A DNA stretch of 64,000 nucleotides, taken from assembly GCA_041390145.1 (NCBI GenBank), contig JAWKQM010000002.1, positions 96,235-160,234 on the forward strand, read 5' to 3'. Below, piece after piece: positions 1,713 to 57,686 of the stretch. Below the pieces are notes generated by a model. The model was given only the letters and a program-made list of their open reading frames with translations. It ran no database searches and had not been told where the DNA came from. Each line of letters begins with the position of its first letter. Positions within the stretch are counted from its first letter, which is position 1. This stretch comes from Gemmatimonadales bacterium. GTDB taxonomy: Bacteria; Gemmatimonadota; Gemmatimonadetes; Gemmatimonadales; GWC2-71-9. A program made the translations under genes and the position numbers.

Positions 1713-1730
1713 ACTCCTGACGGGTAATTG

Positions 1731-2507
1731 ATGCAGATCGCGTTGACCATCGCCGGATCCGACTCGGGAGGCGGGGCCGGCATCCAGGCCGACCTCAAGA
1801 CCTTCCACCAGTTTGGCGTGTACGGCACCTCGGTCATTGTCGCGCTGACCGCGCAGAATACTCGCGGCGTGCGTTCTGTGCACGCCATCCCGGCGGACAT
1901 GGTCGGTCAGCAACTGGCCGCCCTCGCGGAAGACCTTCCTCCCGCCGCCCTCAAGACCGGCATGCTCGCGAGCCCCGCACTGGTCCGGCAGGTGGCGGAC
2001 GCGATTCGCGGCTACGGCTGGTCCCGGCTCGTCGTCGATCCGGTCATGGTGGCCACGTCGGGGGACCGACTGCTCGATGTCGAAGCCGAGGCGGTCGTTC
2101 GCGAATCGCTGGTGCCCCTCGCGACCGTGGTCACACCGAACCTGGAGGAAGCGGCCATCCTCGCTGAGATGCGCGTGGAGGACGTGCCCTCAATGGAGCG
2201 GGCCGGGCGTCGGATTCTCAGCTTTGGCGCCGAGGCGGTACTCGTCAAAGGCGGCCACCTGACGTCGACGACGCTGCTGGACCTGCTGGTGACCCCGGCC
2301 GGCACCCGACGCTTCGAGCATCCGCGCATCGAAACCACCTCCACCCATGGCACCGGCTGCACCCTCTCCGCCGCCATCACGGCCGGACTGGCGCTCGGAC
2401 GGCCGCTGGAGGCGGCGGTGTCCGACGGCATCGACTATGTCCAGCGTGCGCTGCTGGCCGCTCCGGGCCTCGGCGGCGGCCACGGACCGCTGAACCACCG
2501 CGTCTAG
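1731..2507 (+). CDS. thiD: Hydroxymethylpyrimidine/phosphomethylpyrimidine kinase
   Basis: The N-terminus [22 protein letters not shown] and the C-terminal [12 protein letters not shown] are ThiD hallmarks. The start is ATG 1731 or TTG 1728. Confidence 0.9.
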
Positions 2508-3316
2508 AGCCGCGCCACAATCCCCTCGATCAAGTCGCCCAGCCGCTGCCCAACCTGTGCCGCAGTCTCCATGACCTCCGCATGGCTGAGCTTGGCGTCC
2601 GACACGCCGGCGGCCGCGTTGGTGACAGTGGAGATTCCGAGGCAGCGCATGCCCCGGGCGTTCGCCACAATCACCTCCGGCACCGTGCTCATCCCGACGG
2701 CGTCGGCGCCGAGGGTCCGCAGCATCCGGATCTCGGCCGGCGTCTCGTAGCTCGGCCCTGACAGCGCGGCGTAGACCCCCTGCTCGAGCGGCGTTCCCTG
2801 TTCGCGCGCCACGTCGAGCGCAATTGCGCGGAGGGCCGGGTCGTAGGCGGCGGACATGTCGGGAAACCGCTGCTCTCCTGCCAGCACCGGTCCGGTCAAC
2901 GGATTCTGGCCGGTCAGGTTCAGATGATCAGTGATCAGCATGAGCGTCCCCGGCTGAAAGGTGGCCCTCACCCCCCCTGCCGCGTTCGTCACCATGAACG
3001 TCGTGACACCAAGCTCGGCCACGAGGCGCGCCGGCAGCGCCGCCACATCGGCGGCGTGGCCCTCATACAGATGAAACCGGCCACTCTGCGCAATGACCGA
3101 ACGACCGGCGAGCGTGCCCACCACCAGTTCACCCGAGTGGCCCTGCACCGTCGGCACGTGGAAGCCTGGAATTTCGACGTAGGGAATACGCACCGCATCG
3201 GTCAGCCGATCCGCCAAGCCACCGAGCCCGGACCCGAGCACGACCGCAACCTCCGGCGCGCGGTTTCCGAGCCGATCTCGGACCGCCGCGACCGTGGCGG
3301 CCAGCGCGGCGGCCAT
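2504..3316 (-). CDS. punA: Purine nucleoside phosphorylase (PunA/DeoD-II type)
   Basis: The real product is the C-terminal 270 aa of the 563-aa track ORF: [16 protein letters not shown]...[12 protein letters not shown]...[11 protein letters not shown]...MSTVPEV. ATG 3316 overlaps the nupC stop (ATGA). Confidence 0.85.
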
Positions 3317-4698
3317 CAGACCAGCATCCCGGCCAGCGCCGCCGACATGAACGCGGCCAGGTTGCCCGCGATCATGGCACGGAGCCCCAGCTTGGCAAGT
3401 TCCCCCCGGCGCTCCGGGGCCAGGCCGCCGATGCCGCCGATCTGTATGGCGATCGACGAGAAGTTGGCGAAGCCGAGCAGCGCGTAGGTGGTGATGACGG
3501 CGCTCCTCGGCGCAAGCACAATGCCGCTGCCGAGGTCGCTGGCAAACTGGGCGTAGGCGACGAACTCGTTCAGCGACGTCTTGATCCCGATCAGTCCGCC
3601 GACATAGGTGCTGTCGGCCCAAGGGACGCCCATGACCCAGGTGAGGGGCCGCAGCAGCTGCCCCAGCAGGTACTGGAGGCTGAGCGGCGTTCCGGTGAGG
3701 TGCAGGACGGACGACCCGAACCACTGCAGCCCGAAATTGAGCATCGCCACCAGCGCGACGAACGCCATGAGCATCGCGGCGACGTTGATGGCCAGCTGCA
3801 CGCCCTGGGCGGCGCCACCGGCCGCCGCATCGATCACGTTCGACTCGGTCCGCTCGATCTCCATCTTGAGCGTGCCCTTGGTGAGTGGCTCGCCAATCTC
3901 CGGGCGGATGATCTTGGAAAGGATGAGGCCGGCCGGGGCGTTCATGACACTCGCGGCGAGCAGGTGCGCCGCGATGTTCGGGAAGGTCCCCTGCAGCATC
4001 CCGACGTACGCGGCCAGCACGCCGCCAGCGACCGTCGCAAAGCCACCCACCATGACGGTGTTGAGCTCGGAGGTGGTGAACGTCTTCACGAACGGCTTGA
4101 TGAGCAGCGGGGCCTCGGTCTGTCCGAGGAAAATATTGCCGGCCGCGGAGAGCGTTTCCGCACCCGACGTGCCCAGCGTTTTCTGCATGACCCATGCAAT
4201 GCCCTTGACCACCACCTGCATGATGCCGAGGTAATAGAGCACGGACATCAGCGACGAAAAGAAGATGATCGTCGGCAGGACATTGAACGCGAAGAAGGCC
4301 CCGGTATTGGCCACGAAGCCTGCCGTGGCATCCAGGCTGCCGCCGGGTCCGGGCAGGCCGACCGGTACCGTCGACTGCACGAGGTTCCCAAAGACGAACC
4401 GGGCGCCCTGTTCCTGGAACCCAAGCAGCCCGGTAATGGCCCGGCCGGCGAAGTTGAACACCATCTTCCCGGTGCTCGTCTTGAGGACCAGGAACCCGAA
4501 CGATGCCTGCAGGGCCAGCCCGCTGGCCACCAGCCGCCAGTCGATCTTCTTCCGGTCGTAGGACAGCAGCACCGCCAGCCCGATCATCGTGGCGATCCCC
4601 ACCAGGCCCATCAACCGGCTGGCCAGCGGCGTGTCCAGCCCGGCTTGTGCGGCACCCAACCGCTCCGCCGCGCTCTGCACCAGCAGCAGCGCGCTCAC
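3316..4698 (-). CDS. nupC: Concentrative nucleoside transporter, NupC family
   Basis: 460-aa polytopic membrane ORF with CNT-like segments (GNIFLGQTEAPLLIKPF, TVAGGVLAAYV). GTG 4698 overlaps the add stop (GTGA). Confidence 0.8.
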   Translation of the reverse strand: MSALLLVQSAAERLGAAQAGLDTPLASRLMGLVGIATMIGLAVLLSYDRKKIDWRLVASGLALQASFGFLVLKTSTGKMVFNFAGRAITGLLGFQEQGARFVFGNLVQSTVPVGLPGPGGSLDATAGFVANTGAFFAFNVLPTIIFFSSLMSVLYYLGIMQVVVKGIAWVMQKTLGTSGAETLSAAGNIFLGQTEAPLLIKPFVKTFTTSELNTVMVGGFATVAGGVLAAYVGMLQGTFPNIAAHLLAASVMNAPAGLILSKIIRPEIGEPLTKGTLKMEIERTESNVIDAAAGGAAQGVQLAINVAAMLMAFVALVAMLNFGLQWFGSSVLHLTGTPLSLQYLLGQLLRPLTWVMGVPWADSTYVGGLIGIKTSLNEFVAYAQFASDLGSGIVLAPRSAVITTYALLGFANFSSIAIQIGGIGGLAPERRGELAKLGLRAMIAGNLAAFMSAALAGMLV

Positions 4699-5729
4699 CG
4701 GATTGCCTCGAGCTCGGCGCCGACTTCGGCGAGCAGTGCTTGCCGGTCCGGCCAGGGCAGAAAGGAGGAGGTGCAGGCGTTCAGGATCATCCGATCAATC
4801 TCCGCGCGGGAGAAGCCAAGCTCGGTGTGGGCCAGCCAGTATTCGCGTGACAACGACGTCCCACTCATCAGCCAGCTGTCGGTACAGAGCGTCACGTTGA
4901 GGCCGGCATCGAAATACCGCCGAACCGGGTGGTCCGCGATCCTCGGCACGGCGCGGGTCTGCAAGTTGCTGCTGAGGTTGGTCTCGATCAGGATGCGGCG
5001 GTCGCGCACATAGTCCTGCAACGCCGGATCCTCGGCGAGCCTGGTTCCGTGTCCCAGCCGATTGGCGTGGCAGACCCAGATCGCCTCGGCCACCGACTCG
5101 GCCCCGGCCGCCTCGCCGGCGTGCACCGTGATCCCAAGCCCCCCCACCAGCGCGGCGTCGAAGGCGGCGCGATGCACCCCGGGGAGACGGCCCGCCTCCC
5201 CACCAGCCAGATCAAACCCGATCACTCCGTGCGCGCGGTTGGCCACCGATCGGTCGGCGATACGCAGCGACGTCTCCGGATCGTAATGACGGAGCGAACA
5301 GTTGATGATGCCGACCCGCACCCCGAAATCTCGCGCTCCCCGCGAGAGCCCGCGCCACTCTGCCGCGATCACCTCGTCGAGCGAGAGTCCATTCCGCGTG
5401 CTGAGTTCGGGGCAGTAGCGGACCTCGAGAAGCCGGAGGTTGTCGGCCGCCGCATCCTCGACCATCTCGTACGCGACGCGCTCGAGCGCCTCGGGCGTCT
5501 GCAGCAGGGCAATGGTGACATCGAACCGCCGCAGGTAGTCCTCGAGGTCGCCCGCGTCGTCCACGAGCATGTAGCGGCGCAACTGGTCGGGATCCCGCGT
5601 CGGAAGCTCGACCCCCGCCGTCGCGGCGAGCTCGACCATCGTCGTGGGACGCAGCGAGCCGTCGAGGTGGACATGCAGCTCGGCCTTGGGCAGCCGGCGA
5701 ATGATCTCAGGTGTCAGCATCGGCTCCAC
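4695..5729 (-). CDS. add: Adenosine deaminase
   Basis: LPKAELHVHLDGSLRP metal-binding motif, HAGE and a C-terminal TDSW region. 344 aa. ATG 5720 is an alternative start. Confidence 0.9.
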   Translation of the reverse strand: MEPMLTPEIIRRLPKAELHVHLDGSLRPTTMVELAATAGVELPTRDPDQLRRYMLVDDAGDLEDYLRRFDVTIALLQTPEALERVAYEMVEDAAADNLRLLEVRYCPELSTRNGLSLDEVIAAEWRGLSRGARDFGVRVGIINCSLRHYDPETSLRIADRSVANRAHGVIGFDLAGGEAGRLPGVHRAAFDAALVGGLGITVHAGEAAGAESVAEAIWVCHANRLGHGTRLAEDPALQDYVRDRRILIETNLSSNLQTRAVPRIADHPVRRYFDAGLNVTLCTDSWLMSGTSLSREYWLAHTELGFSRAEIDRMILNACTSSFLPWPDRQALLAEVGAELEAIR

Positions 5730-5949
5730 CGGCGCGCCGGGCGCTCACCGCGACCCGGAGGATCGCGCCGCTGACGAGCACGGTCTCCGGCGACACCGGC
5801 AACCCACGGGCGTCGGTGATGGCCACGCCCGCCTTATCGGGTGGCGAGGCACGTGCGGGGTCATCCTGTGCAGCGGCCATGGCGGCGGTGCCCCCTCTGG
5901 GGAGCATGACGCGACGCCCGTTGACGAATACCGGAATGGTGTCGTTCAT
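5707..5949 (-). CDS. Small hypothetical protein, possible beta-grasp (ThiS/Fer2_4-like) fold
   Basis: 80-aa ORF with high GC3. Its ATG overlaps the 5'-nucleotidase stop (ATGA) and its 3' end overlaps the add start. The pattern IPVFVNGRRVMLPRGGTAAMA...GVAITDARGLPVSPETVLVSGAILRV resembles beta-grasp proteins. It has no Cys and no C-terminal GG. Confidence 0.45.
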   Translation of the reverse strand: MNDTIPVFVNGRRVMLPRGGTAAMAAAQDDPARASPPDKAGVAITDARGLPVSPETVLVSGAILRVAVSARRAGGADADT

Positions 5950-8900
5950 CGGGAGGGAATGAACCGGGCATCCTCAGGGGGCCGGACGGGCCGCGGCAGG
6001 CGGCGGAGGTAGAGCTCCATCACCTCGATGTCGCTCATGCCCGCGTTCACCTGTGGCGCTCCGCGCAGCATGGTGTACCCGCCCTGGCCGGCCGCCAGGA
6101 AGGAATTGACCGCGAGGGTGTAGTGGTCCTTGTCCTTTGGCTTCTTGCCGTTGGCCAGGCGCAGATCCCGCACCCGCTGGCCCGCTGGACGCGTCGAGTC
6201 ATAGGTGACGCGAATCCCGGACACGTGGGCGTCGGGGCCCGATGCCGTAATCGAGGCCTCCGCCATTTCGCGGAGTTGGCGGCCGGTGATCGTGACGGTC
6301 ACCGCCTGATTCTGGAACGGCATCACCGTGAACAGCTGCCCGAACGTGAGGGGGCCGGCGGCGACGTCGGCGCGGATGCCACCATTGTTGACGAGGGCGA
6401 CGTCCGCACGCAGGACATTGCGGAAGGCATCCGCCATCAGATTGCCAAGCGGATACTGCTTGCCGGTGCGCGGGAGTGGCAGGGCGATGTCGGTGATGAT
6501 CCGCTTCGAGAGGCTGTCGGTCAGCTGGACCGAGCGGGCGACCAGCGCCCCGATCGCCGAGTCCGGGGTGACCTGATCCACCCAGACCGTCTGGACATTC
6601 ACGTCGATCTTGCGCGCACCATCGACGGTACGAATGATGTCCACGACCCCGATGGCGGTCCCATTGTTCCGGGCCTGCACAATCGGCACACCGTTGCGCT
6701 CCGCGTCGATGAGCGTGTGGCTGTGCCCCGAGACGATGAGGTCGATGGTACCGGGCGGGAGCGATTGTGCCATGTCGAAGATCTCGCCGGCGCACGCCAG
6801 GGAGTCACACCGCCCACCGGAGTGCGCGAGCAGCACCAGGAAGTCCGGATTGGCGCTGCGCGCTTCCTCGACAACATCCTTGATGGAGGCGTACCCCGAG
6901 CCGAACGTCAGGCCGGCAATGTTCTGCGGGGCGACAATCTCCTTCGTCTCGCTGGTGATGAAGCCCACCACCGCCACCTGGTAGTTCCCGGCCCGGACCA
7001 TCCGCCACGGCGTAATCCAGTCGGGGCGCTTTCCGGTCAGGGAGTCGAAGATGTTGGCCGCAACCCAGGGATAGTCCGACTCCCGCATGCGGGCGCGGAG
7101 GGTGTCCGCCGACCAGTCGAAGTCATGATTCCCGACGGCCGCCGCCTGGATGCCCATCAGGTCGAACGCCTCGATGGTCGTCCTGCCATAGGTCATGTTG
7201 GAGGGCAGCGTGCCCTGCATCTCGTCCCCGCCGTCCAGCCGCAGCGTCGTGCAGTTGCATCGCGCCGCGAGCGAGTCCATCGTGGCGTCGACCGCGGCGG
7301 CGCCGCCAACCAGCCGGCCGTCGGACCAGCTGTAGACCCTCGGTTCGAGCGCGCCGTGGAAGTCGTTGATGGTCAGGATGCGCAGCTGCAGCGTGTCGCG
7401 CGCCGGAGGCCTGGTCAGCAACCGGGCTGAGGTCAGCGCCGCCGGCGGAGTGATTCGCCAGTTGTGCGCCCCAAACTCCACTGGATCGATCTGGCCCCGC
7501 CGCCGGAGGTCGGCCACCAGCAGCTCGCGGACACTCTCGGTCTGGTCGTAGACAAGCGGCGCCCCGCGAAGGGCCTCAAACCCGCCCCCGCCTTCCTGGC
7601 GGTAGCTGTTCAACGCCAAGGTGTAGGTCGCCGAGGGAACCACGTCTCGACCCTTGACCCGCAGACCCCGCACCCGGCTTCCCGCCGGCTGCGAGAGATC
7701 CAGCTCATAGTCCGCACCCGTGACGACATCGAAGTTATAGCCCGGAATCGTGGGGTCGGTGCCGACCTTGCCGGTGGAGTCCACCGTGTAGTATTGCGCG
7801 CTCTGTTCCAGGTATGCCGCCAGCTGTGCCCCGGTAATCCGGATGCCCCGCAGCGTGTTCTCGTAGGGGTAGACGCCGGCCACGTCGGCGAGACGGATCT
7901 CCCCGGCGGGCAGGCCGGCGCGGGGATCGAACACGGCGGTGGATGCCAGGTCGGTCCCGGCCTGGCGGCGCTGCACCTCATTGATCCAGGTGGTCAGCGG
8001 GACCGCCTCGACTCGTCCATCCCGGCCGGGCATCGCCGCGGTCCCGACGGCCAGCGGCGTGGAGGCCCAGATCCGCACTTCATCCTGCGCCTCCGCCACC
8101 CGCCGGAAGCGGCCGGGAGGCGGCTCGATGCCTGCCAGATCGATCTGCTCGCCGCGGATGCGCGACACGCGCCACTTGCCGTCCTCACGGACGAGATCCA
8201 CATGAGCGACGGCCAGCGTCTGCGCGTACGGCTTCGGCTGGATGAAGTGGACGCCGTTCAGAACGGAGTCGCGCATCTGGCGATGGGAGTGCCCCACGAC
8301 CACCAGGTCGGGGCGCACCGCCCCGCCGGCGAGCGATGCCGCCACGTTCTCGGGTCCGACGCCGAGGGAGTCATAGGAACTCGCGCCGTCCATCCCGCTG
8401 TGGACCAGGGTAATGACGAAGTCGGCCTCCTGCCGGAGCCTCCCCAGCTCTCCGGGGGCGGTTGAACCGATGCGTTCAACCCGGACCTGCCCGCGCACGT
8501 TGTTCCGGTCCCAGATCATCACGCCGGGAGTGGTGAACCCGGTGACCCCGACGCGGACACCCTGTCGGAGCAGCACTGTCTGCCGGCTGAACATCGGGTC
8601 GCCCGACGGCTCGGTCACGATGTTGGCGCTGACCACCCGGAAAGAGGCGCGCCGGAGCATTTCGCGCAGCGGCTCGACGCCGAAGTTGAAGTCGTGATTG
8701 CCCGGGGTCGTGACGTCGTACCCGAGCTGGTTCATCACATCGACGATCGGGTTCGGGTCCCGGGGAGCCACCGTGGCGAAGTAGGCCGCGAAGGGGTTTC
8801 CCTGCAGGAGGTCTCCCGCGTCGACCAGGATCACCTGATCCGGATACGCCGCACGGAGCGAATCGATCGGGCGGGCGGCCCGCACCAGTCCGCCACCCCA

Positions 8901-9029
8901 CGGCCGGTCGTTCACGTAGTCCCAGCCGGTCGCCCGGCCATGGACGTCCGTCGTGGCAACGATGACCAGGTGAGCGGAGTCCTGGACGGCGGGCGCGGCA
9001 GCGGTCAGCAGCAAGAGAGAAAGGAGCAT
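5946..9029 (-). CDS. Secreted tandem-duplicated 5'-nucleotidase / metallophosphoesterase (two UshA-like modules)
   Basis: It has a signal-like N-terminus, MLLSLLLLTAAAPAV. The first module contains VIVATTDVHG...DAGDLLQGN...GNHDFNFG. The second module contains LTINDFHG...DGGDEMQG...GNHDFDW. Each is followed by a 5'-nucleotidase C-terminal-like region. Confidence 0.85.
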   Translation of the reverse strand: MLLSLLLLTAAAPAVQDSAHLVIVATTDVHGRATGWDYVNDRPWGGGLVRAARPIDSLRAAYPDQVILVDAGDLLQGNPFAAYFATVAPRDPNPIVDVMNQLGYDVTTPGNHDFNFGVEPLREMLRRASFRVVSANIVTEPSGDPMFSRQTVLLRQGVRVGVTGFTTPGVMIWDRNNVRGQVRVERIGSTAPGELGRLRQEADFVITLVHSGMDGASSYDSLGVGPENVAASLAGGAVRPDLVVVGHSHRQMRDSVLNGVHFIQPKPYAQTLAVAHVDLVREDGKWRVSRIRGEQIDLAGIEPPPGRFRRVAEAQDEVRIWASTPLAVGTAAMPGRDGRVEAVPLTTWINEVQRRQAGTDLASTAVFDPRAGLPAGEIRLADVAGVYPYENTLRGIRITGAQLAAYLEQSAQYYTVDSTGKVGTDPTIPGYNFDVVTGADYELDLSQPAGSRVRGLRVKGRDVVPSATYTLALNSYRQEGGGGFEALRGAPLVYDQTESVRELLVADLRRRGQIDPVEFGAHNWRITPPAALTSARLLTRPPARDTLQLRILTINDFHGALEPRVYSWSDGRLVGGAAAVDATMDSLAARCNCTTLRLDGGDEMQGTLPSNMTYGRTTIEAFDLMGIQAAAVGNHDFDWSADTLRARMRESDYPWVAANIFDSLTGKRPDWITPWRMVRAGNYQVAVVGFITSETKEIVAPQNIAGLTFGSGYASIKDVVEEARSANPDFLVLLAHSGGRCDSLACAGEIFDMAQSLPPGTIDLIVSGHSHTLIDAERNGVPIVQARNNGTAIGVVDIIRTVDGARKIDVNVQTVWVDQVTPDSAIGALVARSVQLTDSLSKRIITDIALPLPRTGKQYPLGNLMADAFRNVLRADVALVNNGGIRADVAAGPLTFGQLFTVMPFQNQAVTVTITGRQLREMAEASITASGPDAHVSGIRVTYDSTRPAGQRVRDLRLANGKKPKDKDHYTLAVNSFLAAGQGGYTMLRGAPQVNAGMSDIEVMELYLRRLPRPVRPPEDARFIPSR

Positions 9030-9123
9030 TCCTCAAATATCCGTCCTTCCCCGCAGGTTTGGCAATGCGCCCGCCCGGGACCCTTGCGCTCCGCAGACGA
9101 TTCGGATATTCGTTTACGCGCAT

Positions 9124-9498
9124 ATGAACCCCCCGTCGCCCACCACGGAACTCCTCGTGGCGCTCGCCGAGCCGACCCGGCTCAGGATACTCAACTGCCT
9201 CGCGGCAGCCCCGCTCTTCGTGTCCGACCTGCAGACTATCCTGGCGGTGCCCCAGCCGACCGTGTCGCGGCACCTGAAGGTGCTGAAGGAAGCCAACCTG
9301 GTCCGCGATACGCCGATTGCGCAGTTCGTCCTGTACCGCCTCCGACGGGAGACTGGCGTCCGGGGCCGGCTGCTGACGGCTACGCTCGAGGCGCTCGGCC
9401 AGGAGGAGCAGATGCGGACCGAACGGCACCAGGCCTCCGATCGAAGCCGTGCCAACCCCCGTGTCCGGCTCGCCACGCCGGTGGAGTCCTCGTCATGA
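9124..9498 (+). CDS. ArsR/SmtB-family transcriptional regulator (no canonical metal-binding CxC)
   Basis: LAEPTRLRILNCL...VSDLQTILAVPQPTVSRHLKVLKEANLV is the ArsR winged-helix signature. The usual ELCVCDL position reads PLFVSDL. Its stop overlaps the phoB start (ATGA). Confidence 0.85.
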   Translation: MNPPSPTTELLVALAEPTRLRILNCLAAAPLFVSDLQTILAVPQPTVSRHLKVLKEANLVRDTPIAQFVLYRLRRETGVRGRLLTATLEALGQEEQMRTERHQASDRSRANPRVRLATPVESSS

Positions 9499-10202
9499 CA
9501 CATCGCATTCTCGTGGTCGATGACGAGCCGGACATCACGGCCCTGGTCGCGTACCACCTGGCGAAGGCGGGGTACCGGGTGTCGACCGCCGCCCGCGGGC
9601 CGGACGCGCTCAAGGCCGCCGCCGAAGAGCGCCCGGACGTCGTCATTCTCGACCTCATGCTGCCGGGAATGTCAGGGTATGACGTGCTGGCGGAGCTCCG
9701 CGCCCGCCCGGAGACCCGCGATATCGGCGTGATCCTGCTGACGGCGCGCAAGCAGGAGGCGGACCGGATCCGCGGGCTCACGCTCGGGGCAGACGATTAC
9801 CTCACGAAGCCCTTCTCCCCGGCCGAGCTGACCCTGCGGGTCGGCGCGGTCCTTCGCCGCCTCGCCGCGCCGTCCGTGGCGCAGGGCGACACCCTCACGG
9901 CCGGCGACATCGTCATCGACCGATCGGCGCTGCGGGCCACCCTCGGTGGCGAGGAACTGGACCTGACCGCCACGGAGTACAAGCTGCTGCTGACGCTGGT
10001 GGAGCGCCGGGGCCGGGTACAGACGCGACCCCACCTGCTCGAGACGGTCTGGGAGGCGCAGCCCGACATCCAGACGCGGACCGTCGACATGCACATCCAG
10101 CGGCTGCGCACAAAACTGGGGGATGCCGGCCGGCTCATCGAGACCGTTCGAGGCTTCGGCTATCGGTTCCGGGCAACCGACCGCAGTGGGCGGAAGTCGT
10201 GA
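9495..10202 (+). CDS. phoB: OmpR/PhoB-family response regulator
   Basis: The receiver is ILVVDDEPDI...VVILDLMLPGMSG...LLTARK...YLTKPF. The winged-helix output is LTATEYKLLLTL...VDMHIQRLRTKL...VRGFGYRF. The real start is ATG 9495 inside a longer spurious track ORF. The gene lies next to phoR and the pst genes. Confidence 0.85.
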   Translation: MTHRILVVDDEPDITALVAYHLAKAGYRVSTAARGPDALKAAAEERPDVVILDLMLPGMSGYDVLAELRARPETRDIGVILLTARKQEADRIRGLTLGADDYLTKPFSPAELTLRVGAVLRRLAAPSVAQGDTLTAGDIVIDRSALRATLGGEELDLTATEYKLLLTLVERRGRVQTRPHLLETVWEAQPDIQTRTVDMHIQRLRTKLGDAGRLIETVRGFGYRFRATDRSGRKS

Positions 10203-11941
10203 CCTTTACCGGGAGAGTCGTCGCGGGCACCCTGCTGGTCCTGGTGGTAAGCGTCGTCGTCCTGCTCTGGACCGCCGACTTCGCCCTGCGCCGGGACCTC
10301 GAGGGCGAAGTGGCCACAAACCTCCAGCGGGAGGCGCTGATCGTCCGGGAGGGGCTGCCCGTCGGGGCGGCCGAGGCGCAGGCCTGGATCTACAGGGTCG
10401 GGCGGGAGACCGGTTACCGCATCACGCTCATTGCGCCCGATGGTCGGGTTACCGGCGAAAGCGACTACGCCACCCTTCCCCTCCCCGCGATCGAGAACCA
10501 CGGCCACCGCCCCGAGGTGGTCGCCGCGCTTGCCGATTCACTTGGGGTCAGCAAGCGGAAGAGCGCAACCGTCGGGCGAGAGCTGATATATGTCGCGGTG
10601 CCCGGAGGCCCCGGGGTCGTCCGGGTGGCGGCCGATCTCGACCACGTGGACGGCATCGTGCATCGGGCACAGCTGGCCGTGGCCCTCGCCGCGCTGGTTG
10701 CGCTCCTGATCGGGACGCTCGTGGCGTGGATCACCGCCGGGTCTGTCACTCGGCCGCTCACCGCCATCACGGAAGCGGCGCGCACCATCGCGGCCGGGCA
10801 GGCTCCGCGCTTCCCTCACTCCGGGATCCGGGACATCGACACGCTCGTCCAGGCGCTCCGGCAGATGCACCACGATCTGGCGGACCGGTTCGAGAACCTG
10901 CGCCACGAGCAGGCGGAGTCGGCGGCAATCGTGACAGCCATGGTGGAGGGTGTCGTGGCCGCCGATGCCCGGGGGCAGATCGTCACGGCCAACCCCGCCG
11001 CGCGCGAGCTGCTGGGATACGGCCCGAAGACCGCGCTCCCGGACATCCAGCAGCTGTTCCGCGGGCGCTCGGCACGGGAGATCGTGCGACGTGTCAGCGA
11101 GGGGACCTCGGTCGAAGGTGAGGAAGTCGGGATCGACGGGCGCAAGATCGTGATCAGCGCGCGGCCGCTCCCCACAGGCGGCGCCATTCTCGTGCTCCAT
11201 GATCAGACCGAAATCAGGCGGCTGGAAGCGGTTCGCCGGGACTTCGTCGCGAATGTCTCCCATGAACTGAAGACCCCGCTGACCAGCATCTCCGGCTATG
11301 CCGAGACACTGCTGGCGGAGCGGCCCGATGCGCAGACGGAACGCCAGTTCCTCGAAACGATTTTGGCCAACGCCCACCGGATGCAGCGCCTGGTCGACGA
11401 CCTGCTCGACCTGGCGCGGATCGAATCGGGGCGCTGGCAGCCTGACCTCGCCGCGATCGATCTTGCCGACGTCGCCGCCGAGGTGGTCTCAGACTTTGCG
11501 GCGCGGGGTGACGACCTGGGTGTCACAATCCTGACCGACATCGCTCCAGGCGCTGGCACGCTGCTGGCCGACCCGGAAGGGGTGCGGCTCGTGCTTCGCA
11601 ACCTGATCGACAACGCGCTCCGTTACACGCCCGCCGGAGGTCAGATCACCCTCCGGAGCCGGGTCGAGGAAGATGGGATCTTGCTGCAGGTCGAGGACAC
11701 CGGCAGCGGCATCCCGCGGGAGCACCTCTCCCGGGTCTTCGAACGGTTCTATCGGGTTGACCCGTCCCGTTCCCGGGCCGAAGGCGGTACCGGGCTTGGG
11801 CTTGCGATCGTCCGACACACGGTCGAGGCCCACGGCGGCCGCGTGGGGATCGAAAGCGAACTGGGATCGGGGACACGGGTGGCTGCCTGGTTTCCAGGGG
11901 GCCTAACCGAGGGCAGAAGCGGGGCCGTTACAAAGCCGTGA
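10199..11941 (+). CDS. phoR: Sensor histidine kinase, PhoR-like
   Basis: N-terminal TM helix, a sensor domain, a second TM/HAMP segment, a PAS-like region, the H-box SHELKTPLTSISGYAETL and a HATPase region (DTGSGIP...GGTGLGLAIV). The GTG start overlaps the phoB stop. Confidence 0.85.
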   Translation: MTFTGRVVAGTLLVLVVSVVVLLWTADFALRRDLEGEVATNLQREALIVREGLPVGAAEAQAWIYRVGRETGYRITLIAPDGRVTGESDYATLPLPAIENHGHRPEVVAALADSLGVSKRKSATVGRELIYVAVPGGPGVVRVAADLDHVDGIVHRAQLAVALAALVALLIGTLVAWITAGSVTRPLTAITEAARTIAAGQAPRFPHSGIRDIDTLVQALRQMHHDLADRFENLRHEQAESAAIVTAMVEGVVAADARGQIVTANPAARELLGYGPKTALPDIQQLFRGRSAREIVRRVSEGTSVEGEEVGIDGRKIVISARPLPTGGAILVLHDQTEIRRLEAVRRDFVANVSHELKTPLTSISGYAETLLAERPDAQTERQFLETILANAHRMQRLVDDLLDLARIESGRWQPDLAAIDLADVAAEVVSDFAARGDDLGVTILTDIAPGAGTLLADPEGVRLVLRNLIDNALRYTPAGGQITLRSRVEEDGILLQVEDTGSGIPREHLSRVFERFYRVDPSRSRAEGGTGLGLAIVRHTVEAHGGRVGIESELGSGTRVAAWFPGGLTEGRSGAVTKP

Positions 11942-46092: not shown

Positions 46093-48093
46093 GTGCGGCG
46101 CCGACACGAGGTCGAGTCCGCGGCCCTCGCGGCGCAGCTCGCCGAGGTGCAGGCCGAGCGCGACGATTTTGCGCGCCGCCTTGACCGGCGCATCAACGAG
46201 ATCTTCTCCCTCCAGGAACTCAGTTACGTGCTCTCCGAATCGCTCCAGACCGAGCGGATCGTGGAGCAGGTGGCCCGGTTTACCTCCCGATTCCTCGAAG
46301 CGGAGGGAACGGTCGTCGCACTCGCGTCGGAGGAGCATCCCGAACTCCGTATCGCGTCGGCCGAAGGATCGCTCGCCTCCCTCCTGGGTCGCTCGATCCC
46401 GTCCGGGGAGGGGGGCCTCCTCACCCAGGCCATCGGTCGTGAGCGGATTGAGCTCGCCGAGGGCCCACCGCCGGGCGTGGAACTGGTGGCGGGCGTGCTC
46501 GTGGCGCGGACCGCCGTCGCCCCATTGCGCGCCCATGGCATGACCCTCGGAGCCATGGCCGTCGCGGCACGCCGCGACCGGCCGTTCTCCACCCAGGACC
46601 TCTGGCTGATATCCACCGTCGCGATGCAGGCGGCGGTGGTGCTGACCAACAGCCGGTTCTTCGGGCTGCTGCGACAGGGCAAGGAAGAGTGGGAAACGAC
46701 GTTCGACGCCCTCTCCGAAGGCATCGCGCTGGTCGACGGGGCCGGCCGCATCACCCGGGCCAACCGGGCGCTCGCGCTGCTGGCCGGCGTCCCGCTCGCC
46801 TCCCTGGTCGGGCGGCCCTTCGTCTCCTCCCTTTTTTCGGAGTCAGCGCCCGCGGAGGAGTTGCTCGCGGGCGCGCGCCTCGGCAAGTCGCGGATCCCGA
46901 CCCTGCTGCCCTCGACCAAGCTGCACCGCACCCTGCGGCTGGCCGGCGCGCCGCTTCCGGCGCACGAGGGGACCGCGTCGATCGTGGTCATGGTGGAGGA
47001 TGTCACGGACCAGCGCGCCCTCGAAGCGCAGCTGATCCAGAACGAGAAGATGGCGGCCGTCGGGCAGCTGGTGTCCGGCGTCGCGCACGAACTGAACAAT
47101 CCGCTGACGTCGATTGCGGGGCTCTCCGAGCTCCTCCTCGAGCAGGAACGCCTGCCCGGCGCTGTCCGGGAGCACCTGAACGTGATTCACGAACAGGCAG
47201 ATCGCGCCGGACGAATCGTGGCCAACCTGCTGACCTTTGCGCGCAAGGGCACGCCGGAGCAGGCGGTCGTCGACCTGGAGGACGTGGCGCAGCGAACCAC
47301 GCTGCTGATCCAGGCGGAGCTTCGGTTGCGCGGCATCACGCTCGAGCGCACCACCGGCGCGCCCGCCATTGTCCGCGGTGACCGGTACGAAATCCAACAG
47401 GTGTTGCTGAACCTGCTGACCAACGCCGTCCACGCGCTCTCCGACCTCCCGCCCGATGCGGACCGGCGGATCCTCGTGGCCACCGGCCAGGAGGACGACC
47501 GGGCCTTTGTCCGGGTCACGGACACCGGCCCCGGCATCCCTGCCGCGCTGGTCGGACGCATCTTCACGCCGTTCTTTACCACGAAGGAACCGGGCCGGGG
47601 CACCGGGCTTGGACTCTCCATCAGCTACGGTATCGTGGAGTCACACGGCGGGCGGCTGTCGTACGCACCAGGAGAGGAGGGGGGATCGACCTTCGCGATC
47701 GAGCTGCCAGCCTACGGCAGCGGCCCTGTGAAGCAGCTCGTGCCGTGCCGGGTGCTGGTGGCCGATGCGGATCGGTCGGTCCACCGGGTGGTCACCGCCC
47801 TCCTGACGCAGAACGGGGTACAGATCCACACGGCGCGAACGGGAGCAGAAGCCGTGGTCATGTCCAACGAACTGGCCTACGACATCGTGCTCGTCGACCC
47901 GACGTTGTCGGGGGCCTCGGAGCCGCTCGTCCCGTTGCTGCTGGCCCAGCGGCCCGAGCTTCTCTCGCGCCTGGTCCTCCTCGGCGACGACGGCCGCACC
48001 CTCCACGCCGACCTGCCAGAGATCCCCCACCTCGCCAAACCGCTGGTCCCGCGCGACGCACGGGCGGTGCTGCAGCGCCTGCTGGGCTCGTAG
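46093..48093 (+). CDS. Hybrid sensor histidine kinase (GAF-like, PAS-like, HisKA, HATPase, C-terminal receiver-like domain)
   Basis: H-box VAHELNNPLTSIAGLSELL, HATPase DTGPGIP...GTGLGLSISYGIV, and a receiver-like tail VLVADAD...IVLVDP...LAKPL. The true start probably lies upstream at 46027-46030 (see the finding at 46027-46095). Confidence 0.85.
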   Translation: MRRRHEVESAALAAQLAEVQAERDDFARRLDRRINEIFSLQELSYVLSESLQTERIVEQVARFTSRFLEAEGTVVALASEEHPELRIASAEGSLASLLGRSIPSGEGGLLTQAIGRERIELAEGPPPGVELVAGVLVARTAVAPLRAHGMTLGAMAVAARRDRPFSTQDLWLISTVAMQAAVVLTNSRFFGLLRQGKEEWETTFDALSEGIALVDGAGRITRANRALALLAGVPLASLVGRPFVSSLFSESAPAEELLAGARLGKSRIPTLLPSTKLHRTLRLAGAPLPAHEGTASIVVMVEDVTDQRALEAQLIQNEKMAAVGQLVSGVAHELNNPLTSIAGLSELLLEQERLPGAVREHLNVIHEQADRAGRIVANLLTFARKGTPEQAVVDLEDVAQRTTLLIQAELRLRGITLERTTGAPAIVRGDRYEIQQVLLNLLTNAVHALSDLPPDADRRILVATGQEDDRAFVRVTDTGPGIPAALVGRIFTPFFTTKEPGRGTGLGLSISYGIVESHGGRLSYAPGEEGGSTFAIELPAYGSGPVKQLVPCRVLVADADRSVHRVVTALLTQNGVQIHTARTGAEAVVMSNELAYDIVLVDPTLSGASEPLVPLLLAQRPELLSRLVLLGDDGRTLHADLPEIPHLAKPLVPRDARAVLQRLLGS

Positions 48094-53514: not shown

Positions 53515-54948
53515 TCAGTACCCCGCCGCCGACGCCGGAAACCACGGAGTCACTACGACCGAACCCCTCGTCCGGGCAACGGCCTCCGCCTCGGTGGCCG
53601 TCGCCCAGTAGTTGCTGCCGGCCGTCAGCGACGGCGCCACGATGAAGTACCGCTGAGCGCGGAGGAAAACGTTGCCCGTGACCTGCGCGTCCCGCCCGAC
53701 GGAGTCGGCCACGAAGGCCTCATCCACCGCATCGAAGGTGTTCCCGCGCACTCGGGCGTGCGCTGTCCGCTCCAGGACCAGGCCACGCGTCACCTCGGCG
53801 ATGGTGTTCCCGTCGATCACATAGTCGCGGCTCGAGGGACCCGCCGAGTCCCGCGTGAACAACAGGATTCCCGTCTTGCCACCCATGATCAGGTTTGTCA
53901 GCAGCCGATTGGTCCCGCCGTGCTCGATGGCGATCCCGACCGAGCGCGACCCCAGGATAATGTTCCCCTGCACGGTCGTGCCGGTGGAATAGCCGAGCCA
54001 GAAACCGTAGTCCGAGCTGTCGGCACGGTTCTCGAGAAAGACGTTGCCATGGCTGAACGTGGACTCGAACGCGTTGTGGTAGGCGGACGATCCATCGTTC
54101 CGAAGCACCATGTTGCCGTTCGAAGGTCGGACGTACCCCGGCTGTCCGCTGAGGAAGAAACCGTCGCCCGACCAGGTGATGTCGTTGTCCGCCACCAGGT
54201 TGGAGTCGCTCTGTTCCCGGAGCAGGATGCCCGCGGAATCACACCCCCGCCGATAGGCCGGCGACTCGCAGCGCACGTTGTGATGCGCCTTGTTGCGCAC
54301 CACCACGTTTTGCGACGAGGCCCAGAGGTGCACGCCCCACCCGCTGTTCTCCGAGACGTCGTTGTCGGCCACGTAGCTGGCGCGCGCGTCGATCAACCCG
54401 ATGCCGTTCTGGGCATGGCGGGCGGAGTTCCCGACGATCGTCGCGCCGTTGGTGTTCTTCAGGAGAATGCCGCCACCATACGCCTCCGCAGAGTCCGCTC
54501 GGAAGATGTCGAGCCAATCGCGTTCGTCGTACCGGTCCGGCGTGGACCGGAGCGACTGGGCGCGGGACCCCGAGACGTCGACCCGGGCGATGCGATGGCC
54601 GCGTCCCCCTTCGATCCGGATGCCGTGCCGAAATCCCCGAATCGTCCCGCCATAGATCTCGACGTTGTCGAGCCCGCGGCTGACCACGCCGGCCCCGAGA
54701 AACGCCGCCTGCACGCTGTCGCCGCTCTCCAGGGTGACGCCGGTGAGATTCAGCCGGGTGCCGGAGCCGGCGATGATCAGCACGCCGAGCTCCCCGTGGT
54801 CCGCGATGCGGTAGCGGCCAGGACAGACCGTCACGTCTCCCTGCACCTGCGTACCGGCGCGCGCCAGGCGCAGGCAGGGCTCGCGTGTTGGGGGCTGGAT
54901 CAGGAGGACGAGCGCGGACGCACAGAGCAGGACGGGGCGGTTCAGCAT
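53515..54948 (-). CDS. Secreted right-handed parallel beta-helix repeat protein (NosD/pectate-lyase-fold-like)
   Basis: Signal-like N-terminus MLNRPVLLCASALVLLI. It has repetitive approx. 22-aa units with N..V..N / G+.+ patterns (NGATIVGNSARHAQNGIGL, SYVADNDVSENSGWGVHL, NVVVRNKAHHN, NLVADNDITWSGDGFFL, GNVFLENRADSSDYGFWL). Confidence 0.7.
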   Translation of the reverse strand: MLNRPVLLCASALVLLIQPPTREPCLRLARAGTQVQGDVTVCPGRYRIADHGELGVLIIAGSGTRLNLTGVTLESGDSVQAAFLGAGVVSRGLDNVEIYGGTIRGFRHGIRIEGGRGHRIARVDVSGSRAQSLRSTPDRYDERDWLDIFRADSAEAYGGGILLKNTNGATIVGNSARHAQNGIGLIDARASYVADNDVSENSGWGVHLWASSQNVVVRNKAHHNVRCESPAYRRGCDSAGILLREQSDSNLVADNDITWSGDGFFLSGQPGYVRPSNGNMVLRNDGSSAYHNAFESTFSHGNVFLENRADSSDYGFWLGYSTGTTVQGNIILGSRSVGIAIEHGGTNRLLTNLIMGGKTGILLFTRDSAGPSSRDYVIDGNTIAEVTRGLVLERTAHARVRGNTFDAVDEAFVADSVGRDAQVTGNVFLRAQRYFIVAPSLTAGSNYWATATEAEAVARTRGSVVVTPWFPASAAGY

Positions 54949-55409
54949 AGGCGGAGTAGATCCTCCAGGGGGCCGGCGCCACCATGCGCGAACAGGACAA
55001 GGATGTCATCGAGGGCACGGCGAGAGCGCGGCCACGAGAGACGGCTGCGGGCGAGGTCGACCGAGAGCCATTCCGCGGCGTCGTGCTCGTCGGAGATCGA
55101 GACCTCGGCGTCGGCGGGCACGAAGGCCACGAACGAGGGGATGAGGGCCACCGCATCGGTGCGGTGCAGGTAGAAGGATTCGACCCGGCTCAGGTTGTAC
55201 ATCGCGGACGGTGTGAGCCCGGTCTCTTCCTTCAGCTCGCGGCGCGCACCTTCCACCGGGGGCTCCCCATCCTCGAGATGGCCGTGGACGACTTCCCAGG
55301 CTCCCGGTGAGCGCCCGCGCTCGCTGCGCCGGAGCACCAGAAACTCGAAGCCCGCCCCGACAGGGCGGGCCACGTAGAGATCGATCATCGACACGCACAC
55401 GTCGGTCAT
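54942..55409 (-). CDS. Nudix hydrolase
   Basis: Nudix box GHLEDGEPPVEGARRELKEETGL. 155 aa. It overlaps the beta-helix gene start by 7 nt. Confidence 0.85.
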   Translation of the reverse strand: MTDVCVSMIDLYVARPVGAGFEFLVLRRSERGRSPGAWEVVHGHLEDGEPPVEGARRELKEETGLTPSAMYNLSRVESFYLHRTDAVALIPSFVAFVPADAEVSISDEHDAAEWLSVDLARSRLSWPRSRRALDDILVLFAHGGAGPLEDLLRLC

Positions 55410-55433: not shown

Positions 55434-57686
55434 CTACCCGGCCCGCCGCCGACTGAGGACGGCGTCGAGCCTGGCCGAGAGCGCCCGCGCCCGGAAGGGC
55501 TTGGTGAGAAAATCATCTGCGCCCAGCTCGAACACGCGGACTTCGTTGTCCTCGTCGCCCTTCGCGGTCAGGACGATGACAGGAATGTCCTGCGTCGTGG
55601 GGCGGGAGCGGAGCTTGGCCAGCACTCCATACCCGTCGAGTCCGGGAAGATTGAGGTCGAGGACGATGATGTCGGGCGCCACCCGGTCGACCTGGTCGAG
55701 CGCCTGGACCCCGTCGCGCGCCTCGTGGACGAGGTACCCGTCCCGCTCCAGCAGGTCTTTCATCACCCGGCGCAACTGGTCCTCGTCATCGACCAGGAGC
55801 ACCGAGACGCCGCGGGACTGGTCGCCCACCGGCTCCTCCGCCGCCGGGGGAGCGTCCTCCAGCAGTTCAAATGCGGTGGTCAGGTCCACCGCGGGGGCGG
55901 CGGGGGCTTCCTGGCCCTGCGGAACTGCGGGGAAGACGCCAGTCGGGTAGAGCGAGGGAATGCCGAGCGCCGCCTGGCGGGCCCCGGCCGCGCCGTAGCG
56001 CCCCTCCATCGGGATATCGGTGACCCGCAAGAGCTCGTCGACCGAGCTGTCCCCCTCCAGCACGTGTCGAAGCCCGCTCTCGAAGAGCGACAGCATGCCA
56101 TTTTGACGCCCCGCCGTCGCAATCATGTCGACGGTAGCGCCCTGGCCGATGAGCCGTTCGATGTCGGGACTCATCGTGAGGATCTCAACGATGGAGAACC
56201 GGCCGCGATAGCCGGTCATGGCGCAGTCCGGGCACCCCTTCGGCTGGTACAGCGTCTTGGCGCCGGTGAAGTACTGCATCACCCGCTCGGGCACCGGTTC
56301 CTTCTGCACCACGCGACAGGAGAGGCAGAGGCGGCGCATCAGCCGCTGGGCGATCACGCCACGCAGCGCCGCGCCGATCTTGTAGGCCTGCATGCCCATG
56401 TCGACGAGGCGGGTGACGGAGTTGGGCGCGTCATTCGTGTGCAGCGTGGACAGCACCAAGTGGCCGGTGAGCGACGCCTGCACCGCGATCTGGGCCGTTT
56501 CGCCGTCCCGGATTTCGCCGACCAGCACCACGTCGGGGTCCTGCCGCAGGATCGAGCGCAGGGCGGTGGAGAAGGTGAGCCCCGCCTTCTCGTTGATCTG
56601 CACCTGCACGATATGCTTGCCCAGCCGGAATTCGACGGGATCCTCGATCGTGACGATGTTGACCCCTTCGCTCTGGATCATCCGCAGGGCGGAGTAGAGC
56701 GTGGTGGTCTTGCCCGACCCGGTCGGGCCGGTCACGAGAATGATGCCTTCCTTGTATCCCAGGAGGCGCTCGATCTGCTTCCGTTCCTCGAGGAAGAGCC
56801 CCAGCGTCTCCAGCGACAAGACCGTGGACTTCTGGTTGAGGATTCGGATCACGACCTTCTCGCCATACGTGGCGGGAAGGGTCGAGACGCGGAGATCCAC
56901 CTTGTCGTTGTTGATGGCGATGCGGGCCCGGCCGTCCTGCGGCCGGAGTCGGTCGGCGATGTCGAGGCCGGACATGATCTTGATGCGGGAAATCAGCGGC
57001 ACCCCGGCGGCGCGCGGCACCGTCATGACCTGCCGGAGCACACCGTCGATCCGGTACCGGACCGTGACACCACCCTCGACCGGCTCGACGTGGATGTCGC
57101 TGGCCCGGCTGGTGACGCCATCGGCAAGCATCATGTCGACCAGGCGGATAATCGGCTTCTGGCTCGCCTCGTCGGCGGAAGCACCGATATCCTCCTCGGC
57201 GTCCTCGATCTGCTGCACTTCGGCACCCGTCTCCAGCCCGCCCAGCAGCTTGGAAACGAGGTTCTCGCCCCGGTACAACTCCTCGAGCCGGTCCTTGATG
57301 CGCCCCGGCGAGGAGAGCAGCAGCCGGACTTCCCGCCCCGTCGCGAAGGCGAGCATCTTTTCGGCATCGATGTCGAAGGGATTGGCCGTGGCCGCGTCGA
57401 GGGACGAGTCGGTGATTCGCAGGGGAAGCACGTGGTGCTTCCGCGCGACGCTCTCCGGCACCACGTCGCGGACTTTCATGTCCATCGTCGTCAAGTCGGC
57501 CAGCGGGAACCGGAACCGCGCGGAAATCGCGGCGAGGATCTCGTCGTCGGTCATGATCCGGCGCTGGACGAGCTGCTCCCAGAGCGACGTGGGCGTCGCC
57601 TCGGCGGCCTCGCGGATGGCCGCCATGGCCTCCTCGGGCACCGTGATTTCCAGCGTGGGAACCAGCCACTCGTCCAGAAACGCCAT
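55434..57686 (-). CDS. Type II/IV secretion-family ATPase (PilB/GspE-like) fused to a C-terminal response-regulator receiver domain
   Basis: It has a GspE-N-like domain, Walker A GPTGSGKTTTLY, Walker B DPDVVLVGEIRD, His box GHLVLSTLHTN and the tetracysteine CLSCR...CPDC. A Pro/Ala-rich linker of about 70 aa follows. The receiver reads LLVDDEDQ...IIVLDLNLPGLDG...VIVLTAKG...FLTKPF, with all canonical residues present. Confidence 0.85.
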   Translation of the reverse strand: MAFLDEWLVPTLEITVPEEAMAAIREAAEATPTSLWEQLVQRRIMTDDEILAAISARFRFPLADLTTMDMKVRDVVPESVARKHHVLPLRITDSSLDAATANPFDIDAEKMLAFATGREVRLLLSSPGRIKDRLEELYRGENLVSKLLGGLETGAEVQQIEDAEEDIGASADEASQKPIIRLVDMMLADGVTSRASDIHVEPVEGGVTVRYRIDGVLRQVMTVPRAAGVPLISRIKIMSGLDIADRLRPQDGRARIAINNDKVDLRVSTLPATYGEKVVIRILNQKSTVLSLETLGLFLEERKQIERLLGYKEGIILVTGPTGSGKTTTLYSALRMIQSEGVNIVTIEDPVEFRLGKHIVQVQINEKAGLTFSTALRSILRQDPDVVLVGEIRDGETAQIAVQASLTGHLVLSTLHTNDAPNSVTRLVDMGMQAYKIGAALRGVIAQRLMRRLCLSCRVVQKEPVPERVMQYFTGAKTLYQPKGCPDCAMTGYRGRFSIVEILTMSPDIERLIGQGATVDMIATAGRQNGMLSLFESGLRHVLEGDSSVDELLRVTDIPMEGRYGAAGARQAALGIPSLYPTGVFPAVPQGQEAPAAPAVDLTTAFELLEDAPPAAEEPVGDQSRGVSVLLVDDEDQLRRVMKDLLERDGYLVHEARDGVQALDQVDRVAPDIIVLDLNLPGLDGYGVLAKLRSRPTTQDIPVIVLTAKGDEDNEVRVFELGADDFLTKPFRARALSARLDAVLSRRRAG

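Follow-up and report, generated by a model that had tools for sequence, protein, structure and literature searches.

A PilB-type ATPase paralogue with a C-terminal response-regulator receiver, conserved in Gemmatimonadales

A PilB-class ATPase fused to a receiver

We analyzed a 64,000-nucleotide (nt) stretch of the genome of a Gemmatimonadales bacterium (contig JAWKQM010000002.1, positions 96,235 to 160,234 of the forward strand; hereafter the window), in which one gene encodes a 750-residue protein, P0002, that joins a PilB-type motor ATPase to a C-terminal response-regulator receiver. All of the ATPase motifs and all five key residues of the receiver are present, and the protein is predicted to be a catalytically intact PilB-class ATPase with a phosphorylatable receiver. 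The gene is a conserved paralogue and not the housekeeping pilus motor of its genome. We propose, giving the idea about an even chance, that phosphorylation of residue D677 of the receiver switches the activity of this second PilB-class motor, or the coupling of that motor to the single pilus platform; the product of the adjacent NUDIX hydrolase gene would be a partner. Two points go beyond the first-pass annotation of the window, which was made from the sequence alone: the paralogue is an orphan that coexists with a canonical pilB-pilT-pilC operon, and it has an evolutionary tie to the downstream NUDIX gene.

The open reading frame (ORF) lies on the minus strand (55434-57686), with its ATG at 57686 and its stop codon at 55434-55436, and a Shine-Dalgarno sequence of GAGG type is found 12 nt 5' of the start codon. 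Pfam T2SSE (PF00437) matched residues 173-554 (4.6e-132, 440.6 bits versus a cut-off of 24.9; profile positions 2-370 of 370), while Response_reg (PF00072) matched residues 629-740 (1e-31, 109.8 bits versus a cut-off of 30.2). Together with the match to PF05157, these results bear out the first-pass description of a single 750-residue ORF with a GspE-N domain, an ATPase, a Pro/Ala linker and a receiver, and every motif quoted in that description (the His box, CxxC...CxxC, VDDED, D677, T707 and K729) was located. The Walker A motif is GPTGSGKTTTLY at residues 320-331, with GPTGSGKT at 320-327; the Asp box/Walker B is DPDVVLVGEIRD at 383-394, the His box GHLVLSTLHTN occupies residues 408-418, and the Cys4 zinc site comprises CLSC (454-457) and CPDC (485-488), contributing C454, C457, C485 and C488.

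An AlphaFold2 model built from 85 sequences had a mean predicted local distance difference test score (pLDDT) of 89.1 and a predicted template modelling (TM) score of 0.75. The model places four N-terminal helices at residues 6-12, 18-30, 35-41 and 47-58, all at high pLDDT, and Foldseek superimposed its ATPase core on Geobacter PilB (5TSH_C) with a TM score of 0.94 and a root-mean-square deviation of 1.8 Å. In a sequence search of the PDB, solved PilB proteins aligned with residues 8-556 (385 bits), whereas GspE alignments began only at residue 164.

The receiver is modelled as a (beta-alpha)5 fold whose five strand-helix units all have high pLDDT. Its motifs are VDDED at 632-636 (D633/D634), IIVLDLNLPG at 673-682 (the predicted acceptor, D677), VLTAKG at 705-710 (T707) and LTKPF at 727-731 (K729). 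The top named relatives in NCBIfam are the receivers of PhoB, RpaB, YycF and OmpR, PhoB scoring 113.9 bits over residues 628-748. P0002 departs from the OmpR/PhoB-family layout in that it stops 2 residues past helix alpha5 and has no winged-helix output domain. Between ATPase and receiver lies an Ala/Pro/Gly-rich linker of about 65 residues, modelled as disordered, with pLDDT < 50 at 565-570 and 577-624.

Conservation of the fusion

We searched 300 genomes of the phylum, in which f1 denotes the family of this bacterium and f2 and f3 denote further families. Uninterrupted matches to residues 1-748 were found in nearly all f1 genomes (43 genera), in f3 and in part of f2. All three Pfam domains were present in each of the 120 top-scoring database proteins retrieved with the linker and receiver, and those with a name were labelled Gemmatimonadales; the fused frame was also found in thousands of metagenomic proteins. 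The first-pass annotation had advised a check for a fusion artefact. That the fusion arose in assembly or annotation, or that the gene is a decaying pseudogene, has next to no chance of being correct, and is refuted by the comparative data: the same uninterrupted frame recurs in well over 100 independently assembled genomes, which argues that the fusion is not an artefact, and the catalytic and receiver residues vary only by a conservative Asp/Glu exchange at position 633 and one H409P substitution.

Mean identity to P0002 among 105 orthologues was highest in the receiver (0.89), followed by the ATPase (0.78), N1 (0.67), the N-terminal helices (0.57) and the linker (0.40). The receiver is thus the domain under the strongest constraint. 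The Walker A lysine, the four cysteines, D634, D677, T707 and K729 were invariant in all 106 sequences compared; the Walker, Asp-box and His-box residues were likewise invariant, with the exception of H409, kept in 105/106, while residue 633 is Asp in 97 and Glu in 9. The alpha4-beta5-alpha5 face of the receiver is invariant. The five key residues of the receiver are also retained across 84 distant representatives, D677 being kept in 80 of the 85 sequences aligned (these 84 and P0002).

Inside the otherwise unconserved tether lies an F606-x-L608-L609 motif (window positions 55860-55871), at which one helical turn is predicted. F606 is kept in 96, L608 in all and L609 in 93 of the 106 sequences, and the motif may be a docking peptide. 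Among distant family members the length of the linker ranges from 11 to 156 residues.

A conserved paralogue beside the canonical pilus operon

The genome, which is 98% complete, encodes a canonical pilB (570 aa)-pilT-pilC operon at C2:290293-294367, on the same contig as the receiver-tailed gene (C2:151668-153920) and about 140 kb from it, as well as a pilMNOPQ locus at C2:260004-264754. A genome census found one T2SSF protein (PilC) and one secretin, both in pil loci. P0002 is 39% identical to the genome's own canonical PilB. It scored 540.2 bits against the PilB equivalog TIGR02538 (cut-off 675.65) and 534.5 bits against the GspE model TIGR02533 (cut-off 630.25), reaching neither cut-off, and the genome has no separate gsp GspF or secretin. 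PilB-type features are nonetheless present in the form of the Cys4 zinc module and the N-terminal MshEN/N1 domains. Canonical PilB (at least 70% identity) was found in nearly all of the 131 family genomes searched.

Other orphan T2SSE-family ATPases are present in the same genome (G000:C15:33430-33918 and G000:C4:62821-63675; a 423-aa open frame and a 358-aa PilT-like protein). The genome has no second platform protein.

The MshEN motif, which binds cyclic di-GMP (c-di-GMP), spans 24 residues, RLGxx(L/V/I)(L/V/I)xxG(L/V/I)(L/V/I)xxxxLxxxLxxQ, with 11 defined positions (Wang et al. 2016). At its site P0002 has SLWEQLVQRRIM, versus RLGYVLVKLGFV in canonical PilB. The best window of P0002 matched 7 of the 11 positions and none of the three residues of the R/G/G core, a score that shuffled sequence also reaches; the first-pass annotation was therefore right to describe the N-domain as lacking this motif. 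Receiver-tailed orthologues matched 4-7 of 11, again as shuffled sequence does, and the R/G/G core was wholly absent in 100/106. Canonical PilB proteins matched 10-11 of 11, with all 11 in this genome and in 17/20 sampled genera, as in RLGYVLVKLGLVQELEITKVLARQ (MshEN motif II). Judged by these motifs, the genomes carry a c-di-GMP-type PilB together with a putative phospho-type paralogue that has lost the c-di-GMP motif.

Phyletic spread and phylogeny

We exhaustively searched 1.84 billion representatives at 50% identity and classified the best 150. A C-terminal receiver was found in 110, with the order N-terminal domain-ATPase-REC in 102 and ATPase-REC in 8; a further 5 have an N-terminal receiver and 14 have two tandem ATPase cores. 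The architecture, called unusual in the first-pass annotation, is therefore not so: besides its share of these representatives, it is near-universal in its own Gemmatimonadales family. Some receiver-tailed proteins are named as Zixibacteria and Elusimicrobia, and receiver-tailed PilB-like ATPases occur in at least 5 phyla.

The tandem double-T2SSE proteins are ~1000 aa long and include P0129, P0132, P0133 and P0135 among others, as well as P0283-P0285; one source names one of them PilB. Further variants of the family (P0136, P0153, P0155, P0172, P0203 and P0231) display three successive receivers after the ATPase, a TPR tail, or a double zinc ribbon within the linker together with a tail of 400-750 aa without a Pfam match.

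Genome contigs were scanned with a pattern covering the His-box region only, so the phyla it returned are a sample and not a census. Among the matches listed, single-ORF fusions were found in metagenome-assembled genomes (MAGs) labelled Deltaproteobacteria, Mycobacteriales, Actinomycetota and Frankiaceae and in one unclassified bacterium. Five of the 12 apparent full-coverage matches listed were in fact pairs of adjacent, unfused genes, and a separate receiver gene directly 3' of the ATPase gene was found, again among the matches listed, in Buchananbacteria, Desulfobacterales, Desulfatiglandales and Helicobacteraceae. A profile search built on 85 diverse fused proteins gave a list dominated by Gemmatimonadales and added no further phyla.

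In a tree of the ATPase core alone, one clade took 113 of the 115 receiver-tailed proteins and 4 of the 80 untailed genome PilB/GspE proteins, with support of 0.83 and 0.96 for the two bipartitions of such membership and with a sampling bias, in that the tailed sequences had been chosen by similarity to P0002. The canonical PilB of the genome falls elsewhere, and the representatives with an N-terminal receiver fall outside this clade. On this tree, receiver-tailed PilB-like ATPases appear to be a largely monophyletic clade that spans several phyla. Some Gemmatimonadales have a second receiver-tailed copy, 48-50% identical and in unrelated contexts (G189:C19, G125:C4, G162:C4, G025:C6 and G159:C18; loci L028-L030); these second copies are sister to the syntenic clade.

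A 2016 census of MshEN architectures lists REC-MshEN-T2SSE (Gmet_3473), GAF-MshEN-T2SSE and MshEN-T2SSE-cNMPbind, citing no reference for the three, and does not list MshEN-T2SSE-REC (PMC5013675, Supplementary Table 4). A 2024 review of PilB regulation makes no mention of a receiver-fused PilB, and our literature searches turned up only trans-acting receivers and no paper on a receiver-tailed PilB. The layout is common in sequence space, and no functional description of it was found in the literature. The first-pass annotation had stated that its observation would be refuted if the architecture were common and already functionally described; we found it to be common but met no functional description, in keeping with the annotation's own remark that it had seen no characterization of such a fusion.

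Genomic neighborhood and link to a NUDIX hydrolase

The NUDIX hydrolase encoded immediately after the ATPase (Table 1) has an intact Nudix box, GHLEDGEPPVEGARRELKEETGL, and in most orthologous loci the ATPase gene is likewise followed by a NUDIX gene. Three sister genera have, at the corresponding position, an ATPase orthologue that lacks a receiver and instead continues in frame into NUDIX (MshEN-T2SSE-NUDIX, about 743 aa). A database search with the tail of this fusion returned 438 proteins, and the best 120 of the 438 were all MshEN + T2SSE + NUDIX. Since the NUDIX-fused forms nest within the Gemmatimonadales clade, and the successive outgroups are all receiver-tailed, the tree indicates that the receiver was lost and NUDIX fused secondarily. 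Because NUDIX takes the position of the receiver on this ATPase in the sister genera, the two proteins appear to be functionally linked, and we infer that the NUDIX hydrolase is a functional partner of the ATPase. We met no mention in the literature of a link between a PilB-like ATPase and a nucleotide hydrolase, although none of our searches was aimed at that link.

Three families share the gene order FHA-GAF-adenylate cyclase (divergent), Omp85-like barrel, ATPase, NUDIX. As this synteny extends to housekeeping genes, namely glmS-like SIS and maf, a good part of the gene order is backbone. Orthologues of the barrel occur in families and genera without the ATPase, and in one genome (G040) the barrel gene is followed directly by the NUDIX gene; for this reason the barrel is not counted as a partner. 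An NCBIfam scan of the NUDIX, barrel and lipoprotein neighbors found no specific family. A scan for promoters and terminators found nothing above chance, the weak terminator-like hairpin between the barrel and ATPase genes being of a kind no more frequent here than chance predicts.

These observations bear on whether the Omp85-like barrel, the ATPase, the NUDIX hydrolase and a beta-helix protein form a new envelope-spanning secretion module, in which the beta-helix protein would be exported via the barrel with energy from the ATPase. The four genes lie on one strand with short gaps, and three of them keep their order across the three families. We nevertheless regard such a module as very improbable, given that the synteny is shared with housekeeping genes and the barrel is found apart from the ATPase. 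In addition, few genera, all of them close, have the beta-helix gene, no inner-membrane platform protein or pseudopilin is encoded nearby (the sole T2SSF protein of the genome is encoded elsewhere), and the fused homologues of other phyla have no such neighbors. The hairpin, though no commoner than chance, also lies between the barrel gene and the ATPase gene.

As regards a phosphodonor, the window encodes a hybrid histidine kinase (Table 1), which in several f1 and f3 genomes, and not in f2, is the convergent neighbor of the ATPase operon. We rejected it as the cognate kinase, because backbone synteny accounts for the adjacency, which f2 does not show, and it is retained as a candidate only. 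A CheA-like protein (C6) and a small Hpt protein (C7:73110-73373) encoded elsewhere in the genome are also candidates. An unclassified MAG (L035:2833-7928) has a HisKA-HATPase-REC-Hpt hybrid kinase gene 15 nt 3' of a fused ATPase homologue, on the same strand. In Candidatus Buchananbacteria (L034, about 1186-9181) the genes run pilM ... pilB, a single-domain receiver gene, pilT and pilC; this pilus operon is the unfused counterpart of the receiver-tailed architecture.

Table 1. Coordinates of the features discussed (window positions unless a locus is named)
Feature	Position	Strand	Basis
Whole gene, receiver-tailed PilB-type ATPase paralogue (P0002, 750 aa)	55434..57686	-	ORF, Pfam and full-length orthologues
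Four-helix MshEN_N-like subdomain with degenerate c-di-GMP motif, residues 1-59	57510..57686	-	AlphaFold2 and motif score
N1 (T2SSE_N) domain, residues 60-141	57264..57509	-	Pfam PF05157, 6.3e-16
N2 and C-terminal ATPase core, residues 173-554	56025..57170	-	Pfam T2SSE, 440.6 bits, and Foldseek
Disordered Pro/Ala-rich tether, residues 557-625	55812..56018	-	pLDDT < 50
OmpR/PhoB-like receiver, residues 626-748	55443..55811	-	Pfam Response_reg, 109.8 bits, and AlphaFold2
Codon of predicted phospho-acceptor Asp677	55656..55658	-	Motif position
NUDIX hydrolase gene (155 aa), 24 nt past the ATPase stop	54942..55409	-	Pfam NUDIX, 4e-17
GAF-PAS-HisKA-HATPase_c-(divergent REC) hybrid histidine kinase, candidate phosphodonor by proximity alone	46093..48093	+	Pfam
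ATPase-NUDIX fusion, sister genus	L139:5260-7491	-	
ATPase-NUDIX fusion, sister genus	L143:5646-7955	+	
ATPase-NUDIX fusion, sister genus	L142:5904-8066	-	

Proposed function and alternatives

We infer that the ATPase is under direct phosphorelay control. D677 would be phosphorylated by a histidine kinase or through a phosphorelay, and the phosphorylated receiver would probably act via its invariant alpha4-beta5-alpha5 face, either pairing with the receiver of a neighboring subunit or docking on or off the ATPase ring. The property switched may be the activity of the hexamer or the engagement of the ring with the single PilM/PilC platform, engagement with that platform being assumed because the genome has a single PilC. 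The downstream NUDIX hydrolase would work together with the receiver-tailed ATPase, and the cell would gain a phosphorylation-gated extension motor beside its c-di-GMP-type PilB.

Several observations weigh against this proposal. No pilus gene adjoins the gene, nor does one adjoin the five other single-ORF homologue loci examined, and in Gemmatimonadales no kinase gene was found within the ATPase operon. The NCBIfam scores fall under the PilB and GspE equivalog cut-offs, the core tree carries the sampling bias described above, and, because the sister genera do without it, the receiver is not essential for the ATPase. A genome of the same family, G043 (99% complete, 30 contigs), is ambiguous. 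It has neither a canonical pilB nor a secretin, an in-frame stop interrupts its only PilT-like match, and its pilC is a 5'-truncated remnant comprising residues 132-401 only (L115 7784-8599); the secretin search is firmer evidence of pilus loss than a weak PilM probe limited to the first 50 residues. Its receiver-tailed ATPase (L117, about 8790-11075) is 63% identical to P0002 over residues 52-747 and carries a frameshift at about codon 54 as well as L412P, a substitution in a core strand. This copy could reflect recent decay of the gene along with the pilus, or the misassembly of a gene whose function is independent of the pilus. We had considered G043 as a decisive natural test in a pilus-less genome and dropped it, since its copy of the gene is frameshifted.

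Some of the same observations would be expected if the ATPase no longer served a pilus and instead, with NUDIX, formed a phosphorylation-controlled unit acting on another substrate or in a nucleotide-signalling circuit, a two-component pathway having thereby adopted a PilB-class ring motor as its enzymatic output. The orphan position of the gene, distant from pilus genes here and in the five other phylum-level loci, is consistent with this possibility, as are the sub-threshold NCBIfam scores, the tight NUDIX linkage that has become a fusion in sister genera, the conservation of the FHA-GAF-adenylate cyclase as divergent neighbor, and the persistence of the sequence at 63% identity in G043 although the pilus genes are gone. 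However, N1, the Cys4 site and the whole core are PilB-type, the nearest solved relatives are pilus extension motors, and no alternative substrate or machine is visible; the frameshift and core-strand proline of G043 also fit decay after loss of the pilus. A T2SSF platform protein was present in 9/9 genomes checked that have the fused or adjacent arrangement, a finding that discriminates little, because 13/14 control genomes have one as well. On balance we consider a role apart from the pilus rather unlikely, although it is the strongest of the rival explanations. The broader statement that the receiver-tailed clade as a whole no longer builds filaments, and that with its dedicated NUDIX it is a phosphorylation-controlled nucleotide-processing or signalling unit, strikes us as doubtful, slightly more so than the narrower one.

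We also considered whether the receiver might be something other than a switch of the ATPase, such as a phosphate sink or a module for localization or docking, for example in polar targeting. Polar targeting has been proposed for PilG, FrzS or RomR-type receivers. The tether is long, disordered and between 11 and 156 residues in length, and this variability argues against rigid allosteric coupling; the sister genera, moreover, dispense with the receiver. On the other hand, no domain is more conserved than the receiver, whose invariant alpha4-beta5-alpha5 face points to a specific interaction, although docking models allow for that too, and a pure sink would need no covalent attachment to an ATPase across several phyla. 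A sink or docking module seems improbable to us. Phosphorylation-dependent switching of the motor, or of its engagement with the platform, remains the reading that we prefer.

Relation to known systems

The PilB proteins of Geobacter metallireducens and G. sulfurreducens (5TSG, 5TSH and 5ZFR) and Myxococcus xanthus (3JC8), together with Thermus PilF, share the MshEN_N/N1 domains, N2 and core, boxes and Cys4 site with P0002. In contrast to these PilB proteins, P0002 ends in a tether and a receiver, its gene does not lie with pilT, pilC or pilM, and the c-di-GMP motif is missing. MshE of Vibrio cholerae (PMC5013675) resembles P0002 in being an input domain fused to a PilB/GspE-class motor with the same N-terminal fold; the input of MshE is N-terminal c-di-GMP binding, whereas that of P0002 would be the C-terminal phospho-receiver. 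Proteins of the Gmet_3473 type (REC-MshEN-T2SSE) likewise combine a receiver with the same class of ATPase, but carry the receiver at the N-terminus rather than the C-terminus.

In other systems the receiver is a separate protein. Phosphorylated PixG binds PilB1 in Synechocystis (PMC11181946), and DrdR of Xanthomonas campestris binds PilB and PilT, whose ATPase activity it increases (PMC13507683). These two, and PilG/PilH of Pseudomonas (PMC11656802), have in common with the role proposed for P0002 a phosphorylatable receiver that acts on a pilus motor, be it by binding, stimulating or localizing it; they differ in that the receiver acts in trans and not tethered in cis. Loci with a receiver gene directly after the ATPase gene are intermediates between these trans-acting receivers and P0002. 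An analogy may also be drawn with the NtrC/bacterial enhancer-binding protein ATPases (e.g., FleR, PMC10696123), in which phosphorylation of a receiver governs the assembly or activity of a ring ATPase. It is an analogy only, as those proteins belong to an unrelated superfamily (AAA+ sigma-54 activators) and have an N-terminal receiver with a short linker.

Significance

The control of pilus motor activity is still incompletely understood. The inputs described for them are c-di-GMP, acting directly or via PilZ/FimX, and free receivers, whose contact with the motor is hard to establish. For work in vitro on how phosphorylation might control a PilB-class ATPase, a motor that carries its own receiver is the simplest system. 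The exchange of receiver for NUDIX in the sister genera points, in addition, to a link between a PilB-like ATPase and a nucleotide hydrolase. The bacteria concerned are environmental and uncultured, and the findings have no bearing on pathogenicity. Finally, in Gemmatimonadales, an abundant soil group, the presence of a c-di-GMP-type PilB and a putative phospho-type paralogue for one machine suggests that a single pilus may be served by two alternative motors.

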